64,000 nt of DNA from Escherichia coli (GTDB lineage Bacteria > Pseudomonadota > Gammaproteobacteria > Enterobacterales > Enterobacteriaceae). Below are positions 3,944 through 63,227 of this stretch, one piece after another. The stretch's first letter is position 1; every line of letters begins with the position of its first letter. Where the stretch lies: assembly GCF_001677475.2 (NCBI RefSeq), contig NZ_CP015229.1, one strand, 5' to 3'. Under the pieces are notes generated by a model. The model was not told the DNA's origin. It worked only from the letters and a program-made list of their open reading frames with translations, and did not search any database. Both the position numbers and the translations under genes were made by a program.

Positions 3944-5067
3944 TTCGCTTAGCGCCCTTGATTACCGCCGACGTTGACACCACCACATTACCTGGCGGCA
4001 AAGCCAGCGATGCTGCACAAGATTTTCTCGCGTTGTTGAGCGAAGCATTCGCAGGCGCGACAACAACCGACAAAGCGGCCCCCCAGTTGCTGGTGGCAAC
4101 TGATAAGCCCTCGGCAAAAGGCGAGCCGCTGGTCAGCGATATTCTTTCAGACGCGCAACAAGCAGATTTACTGATCCCTGTGGATGAAACACCGCCTGTC
4201 ATCAACGACGAACAATCCACATCAACACCGTTAACCACCGCTCAGACGATAACGTTGGCTGCGGCGGCTGACAACAATACGGCAAAAGACGAAAAAGCGG
4301 ATGATCTGAATGAAGACGTCACCGCCAGCCTGAGTGCCCTTTTTGCGATGTTGCCGGGTTTTGACAATACGCCCAAAGTGACTGATGCACCGTCAACCGT
4401 ATTACCGACAGAGAAACCAACGCTCTTCACAAAACTGACTTCTGCGCAACTCACAACAGCACAGCCTGATGACGCCCCCGGCACATCAGCTCAGCCATTA
4501 ACACCGCTGGTAGCAGAATCCCAGAGTAAAGCGGAAGTCATCAGCACACCTTCGCCGGTGACTGCTGCCGCCAGCCCGCTAATCACTCCACACCAGACAC
4601 AGCCACTGCCCACCGTCGCCGCGCCTGTTTTGAGTGCACCGCTGGGTTCTCACGAATGGCAACAATCATTAAGCCAGCATATTTCGCTGTTTACCCGCCA
4701 GGGGCAACAAAGCGCAGAGTTGCGTCTGCACCCGCAGGATTTAGGTGAAGTGCAAATCTCCCTCAAAGTGGATGATAACCAGGCGCAAATCCAGATGGTT
4801 TCACCGCATCAACACGTACGCGCCGCGCTGGAAGCAGCGCTTCCGGTACTGCGTACGCAGCTGGCCGAAAGTGGCATTCAGTTAGGGCAAAGCAACATCA
4901 GTGGCGAAAGCTTTAGTGGTCAACAGCAGGCAGCTTCCCAGCAACAGCAAAGCCAACGCACAGCAAACCATGAACCTCTGGCGGGGGAAGACGACGATAC
5001 GCTTCCGGTTCCCGTCTCTTTACAAGGGCGTGTAACAGGCAACAGCGGCGTTGATATTTTCGCCTAA
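3940..5067 (+). CDS. fliK: flagellar hook-length control protein FliK
   Basis: 375-aa Pro/Thr/Ala-rich ORF overlapping fliJ stop. Confidence 0.9.
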
Positions 5068-60339: not shown

Positions 60340-60885
60340 TTATCTGCCAACGTAACTATTTCACCCGCAGTATGCTCAAAACGTTCAGACTCAAGTTCAA
60401 CGCTTAACGCCATGCCCCCAAGTGCCAGCGCTGCTTTTATTATGGAGCCTGATCCCATGAAAAAGTCGGCAACCAAATCTCCCGGACGCAAACAGAATGC
60501 GCTCTGTTGCCGGGAAATACGCCCGCAGGCTTTCCTTGTTGCACCCGTTCCAGCGCCCGGACAGCTTCGCCCAGATAATGTGGTTCAGCACATTAAAGCG
60601 CTCACGCATCATGATTTCGATATCAGATGCCAGGCGATGACCACAGAACAGGTAAAGACTTCCGGCGGGTTTTAATACCCACCAGAACTGCGCCAGACAC
60701 TGATCCAGCCATTTCAGGTAATCATCGTCGCCCTTCCACTGGTTATCCCAGCCCTCGGGCTTCACTTTAAAGTATGGCGGGTCTGTGACTATCAGATCGA
60801 CAGAGTTTTCCGGTAAGGTCTGGATAAATTCCAGGAAATCAGCGTTGATTAACTCGCAGCTGGATATTTTTACAGTATTAGCCAT
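60340..60885 (-). pseudogene. DNA N6-adenine/N4-cytosine methyltransferase, frameshifted
   Basis: DPPY motif in called ORF (60397-60885); FFMGSGS motif and C-terminus in another frame ending at 60340. Confidence 0.6.
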
Positions 60886-61035
60886 AGATCAATAAGCACT
60901 TCTCTGATAGGCTCATACCGCTTTTGCGCAAAGCAGATGGGCCTGAGGTTTGCTTGTGACCCCAACGCATGAGCAGATGGCTGGCAGGTGCCGCTAACAC
61001 CCACCAGCCGCCCATTACCACAAATTAAAAAGCCT

Positions 61036-61233
61036 TCACTGCGGAAGGCGTCTGTAACAACCGAACTGATAATCTGCCAGACCCGCCATAACAAGCTGAG
61101 TCAGTATTAACTGGCAGCGCTCGCGTGAAAGGTAAGTATTCTGCGCAATCTCCCCGACGGTCGCCGGTTCGGTGACGCTTAATTCATTAAACACCACTCT
61201 GGCGGTTTCGGTCATATCCTGCTGTTTTAGCAT
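61036..61233 (-). CDS. hypothetical small winged-helix DNA-binding protein (PapI/FaeA-like by pattern)
   Basis: ORF 61036-61326; start placed at MLKQQDMTETARV (66 aa) with AAGGGA RBS. Confidence 0.4.
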   Translation of the reverse strand: MLKQQDMTETARVVFNELSVTEPATVGEIAQNTYLSRERCQLILTQLVMAGLADYQFGCYRRLPQ

Positions 61234-61354
61234 GTCTTTTTCCCTTTTCTGGTTAACGTGACATACCAATAACTCTTGTCGAAAAAGCCAGCAAGCAGAA
61301 AGACCAGTATTAATAACCACCAGCACATTTAACGCACTGCGCTACTTTGCGGGC

Positions 61355-61381
61355 ACAAAAAACCCGCTCAGAGGAGGCGGG
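61355..61381 (-). terminator. intrinsic terminator downstream of CPBP gene
   Basis: minus strand CCCGCCTCCTCTGAGCGGG hairpin followed by TTTTTTGTG. Confidence 0.55.
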
Positions 61382-61521
61382 TTCAGGCTATGCAGTGAAA
61401 TAACCACTCTTAAAAGCATACATGATTTTTTACGTACGTAAATGCTTTGCCGTGCATATTTTTCATGCAAATGTCACATACTGCTATTTTCAGTGTTATA
61501 AATTTAAAGCCATAGAAAAAA

Positions 61522-62346
61522 TCAATTATGTTTTAAGAATGGATAGGTAAAGAATAACAAGTGACACAGATTCAGACCAAAATGGAAAAGGGTTGCCACC
61601 CACAAGCGCCCACTCCACATCCATGACAATCCATACACAACACCAGATAACGTGGCAAATAATACAAGTAAAGCACCACCTGAATAGTGATAAAAACCAA
61701 ACAACAAAGACGCCACAATTAACGCAACCAATGGAGACGTCACTTCTGATAGCCGTGATTGAATATACCCTCTAAATAATGACTCCTCTGCCAGAGACAC
61801 AAAAAACAAATTAGCCAATATAAACTCTGGCAACCACTCTGGAAAATGAATCTCTGGCTTTAACCCACCAAAAAAAACAGCCAAAAACAGGATAAGAGGA
61901 ACAGAGAGCAACAGAGCCGCCCATTTCCACAAAGACACTTCTGATTTCACTTCTTTTTTAAAAAAAGAAGCTGTACACAGGACTAACAAAAATGGCACCA
62001 GCGCTTTATCAAAATTAAAATACATTGTATAGGGAGTGCTTTGAGGTCCGACAGTGACAGACTTTAGCACTACAGGATTGTGAAACCCTGGCCATAAATG
62101 AAAAGATAATGCTATGGCTGATAAAACTATGCCAGCTTCATATATGGATTTAGCCCAGGCGTTATATTTCCAGTTGAACTTCAAAATAATAAAAAAAACG
62201 ATTGTAGCAACAAAAAACAACACCGGCCAATCAATAATATCATTAAGCACAGCCAGGACAACAGACACCGTCAACAATGAAAAAGCCACTACCTTATGCC
62301 AACTGAGAGTTGACAGTGACAGTGCTAACACAATCCACATAAACAC
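61522..62346 (-). CDS. CPBP-family (CAAX protease / Abi-domain) intramembrane metalloprotease
   Basis: 274-aa polytopic ORF with EESLFRGY and FGFYHY motifs; visibly AT-rich. Confidence 0.7.
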   Translation of the reverse strand: MFMWIVLALSLSTLSWHKVVAFSLLTVSVVLAVLNDIIDWPVLFFVATIVFFIILKFNWKYNAWAKSIYEAGIVLSAIALSFHLWPGFHNPVVLKSVTVGPQSTPYTMYFNFDKALVPFLLVLCTASFFKKEVKSEVSLWKWAALLLSVPLILFLAVFFGGLKPEIHFPEWLPEFILANLFFVSLAEESLFRGYIQSRLSEVTSPLVALIVASLLFGFYHYSGGALLVLFATLSGVVYGLSWMWSGRLWVATLFHFGLNLCHLLFFTYPFLKHN

Positions 62347-62494
62347 TCCTTTTATTTAATGATGAAGATTGATTATCAATATTTTCAATTCACCTGGCAA
62401 CATTTTGTTTACCTTCCATAAAATTCATGACCATCAAAAAAATAAACATATTAATTATAAACACAGAAAACATAACCCTCGTCACTATATATCC

Positions 62495-62869
62495 CTACCG
62501 CATATCCATATCTAACCGGACATTCAGAGCCATAAGCATTCCTTCAATAATACCTTCAGCTTTATAAAGTCTTTTACCAATAAGCCCATCAGAACATCTA
62601 TGCTTACGTGCAAGAGCCATAAATGTCATTCCACCTACGTAATAATCGACCAACAAATCGTGCAAATACTGATTATTCTTGTTTAATCGTGCCATACAGC
62701 CACAAATTATCATGGCGTCATCATCAGAACACTGAGGACGTGATTTCACTTTAGTTGGGATTAATCCTTTAAAACCAGCAGCTATCGAGGACCATGTTAC
62801 ATCTTCATGATTATTTGCTGCCCATGCTCCCCACCGCTCCATAACCAGCTGAATATCACGCAACATCAT
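62495..62869 (-). CDS. late-gene antiterminator Q
   Basis: 124-aa ORF downstream of rusA; resembles 127-aa Q proteins of E. coli lambdoid prophages ([24 protein letters not shown]...). Confidence 0.75.
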
Positions 62870-63227
62870 TACATCCTCTTATTACGAATATATTCACGCC
62901 CAGTCGCCCACCGCAAACAGGCAGACCATGCACAATATTGATTTCATCAAACTGCTCGTCGTCTATAAGCAGCCCCGCATGTGTCAGCGCATCCAGCAGT
63001 GCTTTCAGGATATTGTCCAGGTCACGACGGCGCTTATCCGGTGGATCTGCAATAATCTTTATCGCCAGCCTTCCGGACAGGTTTAATTTCAACCGCTGCT
63101 GGCGAACAATGAGCACCACATCACGGCGATAACGCTCACCGGCTTTTGATACAAAATATGTGCTGCCATAACGTCGCCAGTAGGTGTTCACCGTCGGCGG
63201 GTAAGGCAAAACAAACTCTATACGCAT
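62856..63227 (-). CDS. rusA: Holliday junction resolvase RusA
   Basis: 123-aa [20 protein letters not shown]...; overlaps Q start. Confidence 0.85.

Follow-up and report, generated by a model that had tools for sequence, protein, structure and literature searches.

We analyzed a 64,000-nucleotide (nt) stretch of Escherichia coli DNA (contig NZ_CP015229.1, assembly GCF_001677475.2; hereafter the window) that contains a lambdoid prophage, and focused on the interval downstream of the antiterminator gene Q, which holds a CPBP-family membrane protease gene, a small winged-helix gene and a damaged DNA methyltransferase gene. We found that this interval probably consists of three juxtaposed prophage units arranged around the late promoter, and not of one functional island. 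All genes from Q to the methyltransferase lie on the minus strand, and transcription order therefore runs from high to low coordinates. The first unit would be the CPBP gene (61522–62340), a cargo gene located between Q (62495–62869; Q21 family) and the late promoter pR′ and read from its own predicted sigma-70 promoter. The second unit would be a late regulatory cassette (61442–61355) composed of pR′, a short leader and the terminator tR′. The third would comprise the first Q-dependent late genes, which encode a 65-residue winged-helix protein (61036–61233) and an N6-adenine methyltransferase of the M.EcoGII family.

In the lysogen, CPBP would be the only one of these genes to be transcribed, and its transcript would stop at tR′. 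Transcripts initiated at pR′ in the absence of Q would likewise end at tR′, and a second hairpin lies beyond it at the winged-helix stop codon. After induction, Q would load at pR′ and RNA polymerase would read through both tR′ and the hairpin at 61027–61049, such that the winged-helix protein, the methylase, the tRNAs and the lysis genes would be made. In relatives with an intact enzyme the methylase would hypermethylate progeny DNA and so guard it against restriction, a capacity lost in this prophage; a benefit of non-specific adenine methylation of progeny DNA was suggested by the authors who described M.EcoGII (PMC5778455). The two terminators would shield the methylase gene, which fits the reported silence of M.EcoGI and M.EcoGII in the lysogen and the harm they do when expressed (PMC5778455).

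The first and third units have separate distributions. In our search set of 5426 complete E. coli genomes, CPBP together with the Q-proximal spacer is present in 571 (10.5%), and the carriers include O157:H7 EDL933 and 86-24 as well as O145, O111, O103 and O55:H7 strains. The Q stretch of the window is matched in 591 genomes, 571 of which are the CPBP carriers; the other 20 match only inside Q, at about 86% identity among those listed. CPBP is thus linked to the Q allele and not to the winged-helix gene or the methylase. A winged-helix gene contiguous with the 5′ methylase part is present in 1878 genomes, most of which lack CPBP, and 2145 genomes have the winged-helix region. Individual phages combine the genes in different ways. 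The Shiga toxin (Stx) 1d phage of strain C311 has Q, CPBP and stx1d, with neither the winged-helix gene nor the methylase. Phage phiP27 has Q, a GIY-YIG protein, the winged-helix gene, the methylase, tRNAs and stx2e, and phage 1720a-02 has Q, the winged-helix gene, the methylase and stx2, both without CPBP. In O157:H7 86-24 the order is Q, CPBP, the winged-helix gene (with a 1-nt deletion), a 237-residue helix-turn-helix (HTH) protein (phrog_1450) that occupies the methylase position, tRNAs and NanS-p.

The methyltransferase survives as two pieces in different frames. The N-terminal piece (60397–60885) carries motif IV (DPPY) and codons 1–133, followed by an out-of-frame tail, and the C-terminal piece (60336–60491) carries motif I (FFMGSGS). 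Intact relatives have 348–352 residues and match PF01555 at 7.8e-41. The N-terminal 134 residues of the remnant are 93% identical to the intact 348-residue enzyme of strain C8, and the C-terminal piece shares 64% amino acid identity with residues 301–344 of the intact enzyme. Compared with phage 1720a-02, 503 nt are absent (from about nt 400 to about nt 902 of the gene), with a 2-nt overlap or microhomology at the junction, which we took from BLAST coordinates against that phage (CTGTTTGCG^TCCGGGAG; 60479–60495). The deletion removes approximately codons 134–300, which make up the target-recognition domain, and shifts the frame by joining codon 133 to about codon 301. Since the target-recognition domain is gone the enzyme must be dead here, and on these grounds the gene is a destroyed pseudogene. 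The first-pass annotation, made from the DNA letters alone, had described a frameshifted beta-class methyltransferase: the class assignment holds, as the DPPY motif precedes FxGxG, but the lesion is a 503-nt deletion and not a simple frameshift. The deleted allele was found in 6 of the 5426 genomes and the 5′ part in 1874, and PGAP calls the copy in E. coli GB089, a strain 99.8–100% identical to the window, a partial pseudogene. The C-terminal remnant (60336–60488) is more divergent than the rest, with 78% nucleotide and 64% amino acid identity against 89–96% nucleotide identity for the N-terminal part. Megablast of complete E. coli genomes did not find a parent allele for it, and its divergence suggests a mosaic or recombinant origin of the remnant.

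The methylase appears to belong to the M.EcoGI/M.EcoGII family, a relation that runs through the enzymes of 1720a-02 and C8 and not through direct comparison. The 1720a-02 gene is 89% identical at the nucleotide level to the 5′ part in the window, and its product is 84% identical to the C8 enzyme. The 1720a-02 enzyme is in turn very similar to M.EcoGII, a prophage-encoded non-specific adenine methyltransferase that is harmful if constitutively expressed, and no expression of M.EcoGI or M.EcoGII takes place in the lysogen (PMC5778455).

The winged-helix protein is the first gene product past tR′ and belongs to phrog_331 (1.4e-37). Its AlphaFold2 (AF2) model has a predicted local distance difference test score (pLDDT) of 92.6, with helices at residues 9–16, 26–33 and 37–49 and a wing formed by strands at residues 53–56 and 59–62. 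The first-pass annotation had called it a PapI/FaeA-like winged helix, and only the second half of that name survives. The top 50 Foldseek matches in the PDB are N-terminal winged helices of O-methyltransferases, MarR/OhrR, IclR, SelB and MotA, with template modelling (TM) scores of at most 0.81 (OhrR), and PapI is not among them. The FaeA/PapI profile (PF04703) is likewise absent from the seven Pfam domains listed at E ≤ 10, the best of which is TrmB (0.0027), with MarR and DprA_WH also weak. Hence the 65-residue protein is a generic winged helix and is not PapI/FaeA-like.

The small protein is very well conserved. The identical 65 residues are encoded in 50 of 78 viral contigs, and phiP27 L23 is the same protein. 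The 1720a-02 allele differs by eight synonymous and two non-synonymous changes, both of the latter at the C-terminal end (hand count from the sequences), and the protein has 61 representatives among 1.8 billion clustered proteins. We rejected the extended versions of 96–106 residues given by some pipelines, as among relatives the purine run 5′ of the ATG varies by indels of −2, −1 and +1 nt that put such versions out of frame. A 45-nt segment 5′ of the gene (61251–61295) is near-invariant and is kept in all 42 distinct leaders, even where everything 5′ of it is replaced. Because the indels fall in the purine run between this segment and the ATG, the segment is non-coding; an operator or an RNA element are candidate roles. 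At the other end of the gene, a second terminator-like hairpin (61027–61049; found in the terminator scan and folding at −9.4 kcal/mol) overlaps the stop codon; its stem is conserved and its loop varies between alleles. The gene itself has been broken independently in two strains, by a 1-nt deletion in O157:H7 86-24 (L006, 5641–5837) and by a 7-nt deletion in C8 (L002, 5672–5862).

The linkage of the winged-helix gene to the methylase was already remarked on in the first-pass annotation, and it is real and close to perfect. Practically every methylase gene has the winged-helix gene upstream (1874 versus 1878 genomes); in IMG/VR viral contigs the two stand side by side in all of the 79 loci, about 154 nt apart throughout. 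This could reflect a functional partnership, for which our model makes no provision, and in this respect it tells against that model. The winged-helix protein may then be a dedicated partner of the M.EcoGII-type methylase, acting as a regulator, in toxicity control or as a targeting factor, a reading that is compatible with the three-unit arrangement. Besides the linkage it can draw on the identity of the protein in 50 of the 78 loci while the methylase varies between 88 and 100%, on the near-invariant leader segment, which could be an operator, and on the harm that constitutive M.EcoGII does to cells (PMC5778455). However, the winged-helix gene matches at 4099 places and the 5′ part of the methylase at 2538, which implies that the former often precedes other genes, such as the one for the 237-residue HTH protein in O157:H7 or DUF3927. 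Furthermore, C8 has a broken winged-helix gene beside an intact methylase, M.EcoGII is active alone in vitro (PMC5778455), and the linkage may merely reflect a fixed insertion point beside a backbone gene. We therefore regard a dedicated partnership as rather unlikely, though it is the best of the alternatives to our account.

The case for a late cassette between CPBP and the winged-helix gene comes from its conservation in phages that differ on both sides of it. The module that the window shares with 1720a-02 and phiP27 comprises the methylase and the winged-helix gene and extends to 61413–61420, hairpin included, and homology with the CPBP-bearing Stx1d phage reaches down to 61373. The segment 61442–61358 also matches phages 434B and PA-2, where it follows the reverse-oriented lc/nmpC porin gene and stands about 120 nt before the holin gene S. 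In these two phages conservation sets in exactly at TTTACG, after which come a 16-nt spacer, TATGCT, GTTAAGAGTGGTTACTTCG..., a GC hairpin and a T-run. The counterpart of this unit in 1720a-02 begins 6 nt past the Q stop codon. The motif TTAAGAGTGGTTA is kept across Q21-family phages despite different upstream cargo and different downstream genes. Relatives whose Q is 81–86% identical have unrelated Q-proximal sequence and reverse-oriented porin or lipoprotein genes, yet the same promoter-terminator block follows.

From this pattern we infer that 61415–61442 is pR′, with TTTACG as −35 element, TATGCT as −10 element and the spacer dyad TACGTACGTA as a candidate Q-binding element; that 61384–61414 (TTTAAGAGTGGTTATTTCAC...), which contains the conserved TTAAGAGTGGTTA, is the start of the late transcript; and that 61355–61383, an AACCCGC-loop-GCGGGTT hairpin with a T-run, is tR′. 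Comparison of 101 loci with a Q21-family Q showed that what separates the −35-like hexamer from the −10-like one varies in sequence with the Q subgroup. Where Q shares 80% identity or more with the allele of the window, the spacer is TACGTACGTA, TACGATCGTA or TACAATCGTA; in other Q subgroups it is GGAATTCC, GCGGTCCGC or ACGCGTACGC. In every case a NANNNT hexamer stands directly (one base) 5′ of TTAAGAGTGG, at a fixed distance to the conserved leader in all variants. The leader RNA folds at −22.5 kcal/mol (z −3.3). A hairpin and T-run, whose stem sequence varies, precede the winged-helix gene behind five or more types of promoter and are present in nearly all of the 42 distinct leaders, where automatic hairpin scoring under-counts terminators since it sometimes took the T-run inside the loop. 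At one locus (L062) a lambda-family Q is followed at the equivalent place by TAAATT-N6-AACGATGGG, the hairpin and the winged-helix leader; we inspected the lambda sequence, and TAAATT-N6-AACGATGGG is the −10 and pause element of lambda pR′. The function of that element was established by work on lambda Q. The general order of Q gene, pR′, pause element, terminator and late genes has been described previously (10.1101/651190).

Because the hairpin is conserved 5′ of the winged-helix gene in phages without CPBP, it is real but is not CPBP's own terminator, as had been supposed in the first-pass annotation. The placement of pR′ also means that CPBP would lie between Q and pR′, and hence not in the position of stx, which is downstream of tR′; the earlier equation of the two positions would then not hold.

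Several observations speak against this placement of pR′. The element TTTACG-16-TATGCT agrees with only 8 of 12 consensus positions and was missed by the promoter scan, and a 10/12 sigma-70 match stands directly 3′ of Q and 5′ of CPBP, where lambda has pR′. An alignment to lambda pR′ (AAAATTGG, GGTTAnTTC) was collinear by eye but no better than shuffles, and we did not use it. We also saw no clear −10-like hexamer for a sigma-dependent pause element in the conserved leader. Two further searches were uninformative: the Rfam isrK match of 61357–61437 is insignificant (19.6 bits against a gathering score of 50) and driven by the terminator hairpin, and a full-text literature search for AAGAGTGGTTA returned as its sole E. 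coli match an unrelated kdpD primer. A comparative paper on pR′ (PMC6266700) has nothing on these genes.

The alternative that these observations invite is that pR′ is the element at 62400–62372, directly after Q. CPBP would then head the late genes and be transcribed constitutively as far as the hairpin, in the manner of lambda 6S RNA, and 61442–61355 would be only a conserved terminator and leader. The element in question is conserved and is one of the two best sigma-70 matches (10/12), Q, spacer and CPBP are inseparable in 571 genomes, and lambda pR′ does stand right after Q. The comparison of phages nevertheless makes this alternative improbable. The block keeps its −35 and −10 hexamers at fixed spacing in phages without CPBP, it lies 6 nt past the Q stop in 1720a-02, and its spacer varies with the Q subgroup. 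Relatives whose Q is 81–86% identical have the same block even though their Q-proximal sequence is unrelated and their slot genes point the other way. We therefore retain pR′ at 61415–61442 and regard the Q-proximal element as a putative promoter of CPBP.

The CPBP gene encodes a 272-residue CPBP/Rce1-like intramembrane glutamic endopeptidase. Its PF02517 (Rce1-like) domain spans residues 169–258 (i-Evalue 7.9e-20), several NCBIfam CPBP models match below their own cut-offs, and the protein falls in phrog_13291, annotated as of unknown function. The three catalytic motifs EExxxR, FxxxH and HxxxN are present as EESLFR, FGFYH and HFGLN. Residues E185, E186, R190, F214, H218, H253 and N257 are invariant across 25 homologues of 47–85% identity, as are H81, N88 and Y107-N109-D111-K112 in the N-terminal part. 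The AF2 model has a pLDDT of 94.4, and its top three PDB matches are to Rce1 (4CAD) and SpdC (6U0O), although these structural matches are weak (E 0.016–0.078, TM 0.30–0.49). Judged by motif conservation, the protein is a CPBP/Rce1-like membrane protease that is probably catalytically intact. The first-pass annotation had recognized both this family and the visible AT-richness of the gene, and both are borne out: its GC content is 0.39 against 0.51 for the whole window, and Q, at 0.405, is AT-rich as well.

A 154-nt AT-rich spacer (62341–62494) separates Q from the CPBP gene and contains the predicted sigma-70 promoter TTGCCA-17-GATAAT (62372–62400). With 10 of 12 consensus matches this is the joint best-scoring promoter-like site between 57000 and 63000, and neither hexamer varies among four alleles, one of them the 86.5%-identical allele of the Stx1d phage. 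There is no other terminator between the CPBP gene and tR′, so that the CPBP transcript would cross pR′ and stop at tR′. CPBP thus has the properties of a moron, namely presence or absence among related phages, deviant GC content and a conserved predicted promoter, except that it lacks a terminator of its own and uses tR′. Homologues that match over the full length at about 50% identity are widespread among other Enterobacterales. In the two contexts that we read, the Salmonella homologue adjoins insertion sequence (IS) elements and the Enterobacter homologue lies between an EAL-domain gene and an ABC transporter. Our view is that CPBP is a lysogen-expressed envelope protease that was probably acquired from an enterobacterial chromosome. 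Its benefit to the lysogen is most likely protection against phages or bacteriocins.

Support for such a role comes from the position that CPBP occupies. The slot between Q and pR′ carries varied cargo in related Q21-family phages, often in reverse orientation, and is empty in 1720a-02. In phiP27 it holds L22, which is the defence system PD-Lambda-1 (PADLOC 2.1e-89; L005, 4962–6191), and in IMG/VR contig 2778261588_000008 (L035) it holds a complete Kiwa system (KwaA 1.9e-83, KwaB 3.9e-148). Further cargo includes lc/nmpC-type porins, a lipoprotein, a 187-residue open reading frame (ORF) with a weak candidate-defence match, a 151-residue ORF with a hydrophobic N-terminal stretch and several unknown proteins. 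The occurrence of Kiwa and PD-Lambda-1 in the same slot is guilt-by-location support for the view that CPBP protects the lysogen. Defence systems are known to accumulate at certain prophage positions, both from functional selection in E. coli (PMC9519451) and from P2/P4 hotspots (PMC9122126); the literature that we searched contains no description of the Q-to-pR′ slot, nor anything on CPBP in E. coli prophages.

Other findings argue against protection. None of the defence families in PADLOC-DB v2 matches CPBP at E ≤ 0.01. No partner gene and no bacteriocin neighbour stands beside the Salmonella or Enterobacter homologue. Except for a mis-assigned EDL933 record, CPBP has no E. coli plasmid relative at E ≤ 1e-3, and it is not close to McsI.

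McsI is a CPBP-family protein that confers immunity to microcin S in E. coli (PMC3316575), and it raises a more specific alternative, in which CPBP is an orphan bacteriocin or microcin self-immunity protein analogous to McsI, PlnI and SagE. The intact catalytic motifs and the placement of the gene for expression in the lysogen agree with this idea. However, bacteriocin or export genes linked to CPBP are absent from the window, GB089, C8, 86-24 and C311, as they are beside the chromosomal homologues, and the plasmid search keeps CPBP apart from McsI. The homologues of about 50% identity in Salmonella and Enterobacter lie beside unrelated genes and share no partner, which argues for a housekeeping-type envelope role. 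We accordingly give orphan self-immunity little weight, about as little as the Q-proximal pR′.

Weakest of all is the proposal of the first-pass annotation that CPBP, a PapI-like protein and the methylase form one island acting as an adenine-methylation epigenetic switch or an exclusion module: the three genes are adjacent, two of them co-occur almost perfectly and the CPBP slot elsewhere holds defence genes, but we find the proposal scarcely credible, since CPBP is distributed independently of the other two, neither profile nor fold gives a FaeA/PapI match, enzymes of the methylase family lack sequence specificity and are silent in lysogens (PMC5778455), the methylase here is out of frame and without its target-recognition domain, and a terminator and an inferred promoter stand between CPBP and the other two genes. 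A non-specific methylase family suits anti-restriction and not site-specific phase variation. What remains of the exclusion idea is the indirect support for CPBP by itself, from Kiwa and PD-Lambda-1 in its slot. The first-pass annotation had named outcomes that would count against its proposal, and two of them are in effect what we found, as CPBP turns out to be frequent prophage cargo and the methylase a common orphan gene; a third, lack of conservation of the small ORF, is the opposite of what we found.

The three-unit arrangement is embedded in an otherwise ordinary prophage region. Upstream of Q lies the RusA gene (62856–63227, minus strand), identified from the ORF list and the RefSeq annotation of near-identical strains, and Q itself (124 residues) is assigned by PF06530 (3.6e-51), by the Q21 structures 6P18/6JNX (2.6e-8) and by phrog_79. 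The next late-transcript genes after the methylase remnant are tRNA-Thr(TGT) and tRNA-Gly(TCC) (60068–60221, minus strand; ARAGORN, and Rfam tRNA at 65 bits each), in the position of ileZ-argN-argO in Stx phages. Between the tRNAs and TerB lies a 180-residue ORF (59181–59723, minus strand; phrog_5091) for which NCBIfam and PADLOC gave no match. It is followed by another cargo pair of the Q-to-lysis interval, a TerB-family protein (phrog_632) and then a 54-residue DUF3927/TciB-like protein (phrog_1470), at 58384–58970 on the minus strand. The small RNA family STnc100 (RF02076) has a strong Rfam match at 58167–58342 (minus strand; 93.7 bits against a gathering score of 47), just 5′ of the holin gene, with a terminator-like hairpin at its end. 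An IraM-like anti-adaptor ORF (57787–58122, plus strand; NF007393 at 1.2e-48, above the curated cut-off) lies between the TerB cassette and the holin gene on the strand opposite to late transcription. A PADLOC search of CPBP, the winged-helix protein, TerB, IraM and the 180-residue ORF gave no relevant match. GB089 carries two near-identical copies of the entire Q-to-holin stretch in two different prophages (at 2.47 Mb and 1.49 Mb; L001 and L003), one of them with IS1 adjoining the lysis genes.

For the window itself these results change little. RefSeq already names all three genes (CPBP family intramembrane glutamic endopeptidase; hypothetical protein or TrmB family regulator; partial DNA-methyltransferase), the methylase gene is a pseudogene, there is no support for an epigenetic switch and the content is that of an ordinary prophage. 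What interest remains attaches to the Q-to-pR′ slot, to CPBP as a possible protective gene and to the winged-helix/methylase linkage. The Q-to-lysis interval would have two cargo positions, one upstream of pR′ and one downstream of tR′. Cargo in the former can be expressed in the lysogen and insulated from late transcription, and cargo in the latter, the stx position, would depend on Q. Known defence systems in the upstream position of relatives make the CPBP gene, widespread in enterohaemorrhagic E. coli, a reasonable candidate for a phenotype. The M.EcoGII family, a source of reagent enzymes, is always accompanied by a tiny, extremely conserved winged-helix gene. Pushed further, the Q-to-pR′ junction might be a dedicated lysogen-protective hotspot, CPBP (in about 10% of complete E. 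coli genomes, including EDL933 and 86-24) a new lysogen-expressed anti-phage or anti-bacteriocin factor and the winged-helix protein perhaps an obligatory partner of M.EcoGII-type enzymes; we offer this extension tentatively and would not expect it to hold in full.

The elements of the interval can be compared with known systems. PapI/FaeA and the winged-helix protein are both small winged-helix proteins of about 65–77 residues. They differ in that the protein described here has no PF04703 match, no structural preference for PapI and no pap-like GATC/Lrp context, and in that PapI/FaeA systems work with Dam whereas the adjacent methylase here is of a non-specific family. The methylase resembles M.EcoGI/M.EcoGII in its beta-class motif order, its carriage by a prophage and its location downstream of Q; unlike them, the remnant lacks the target-recognition domain and has its S-adenosylmethionine motif out of frame. 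Neither the upstream winged-helix gene nor the position behind tR′ is described in PMC5778455.

CPBP shares the PF02517 domain and all three catalytic motifs with McsI, PlnI/SagE-type immunity proteins, SpdC/LyrA, MroQ and Rce1. It has no partner gene and is not close to McsI, and it differs from the known CPBP immunity and regulatory proteins in forming a distinct enterobacterial subfamily that is conserved over its full length, including the N-terminal half.

The putative cassette is similar to the lambda-type Q/pR′/tR′ cassette in placing, between a Q21-family Q and the late genes, a promoter-like element with a short conserved leader and an intrinsic terminator, and its Q-allele-dependent −35/−10 spacer is as expected for a Q-binding element in such cassettes. 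Unlike in lambda, it stands 1.05 kb from the Q gene with a cargo gene between, and its leader is about 50 nt long compared with 194 nt in lambda. The porin genes lc (PA-2) and nmpC (DLP12/434B) occupy the same slot, between a Q21-family Q and the promoter-terminator block, and like CPBP they encode envelope proteins and are present or absent among similar phages; the porin genes are reverse-oriented, however, whereas CPBP is co-directional and encodes an inner-membrane protease. Finally, although the slot described here belongs to lambdoid phages, lies at the Q-pR′ junction and holds in CPBP a protein without a PADLOC model, it is like the P2/P4 hotspots in being a fixed backbone position filled by alternative cargo, which here includes the validated defence systems Kiwa and PD-Lambda-1.

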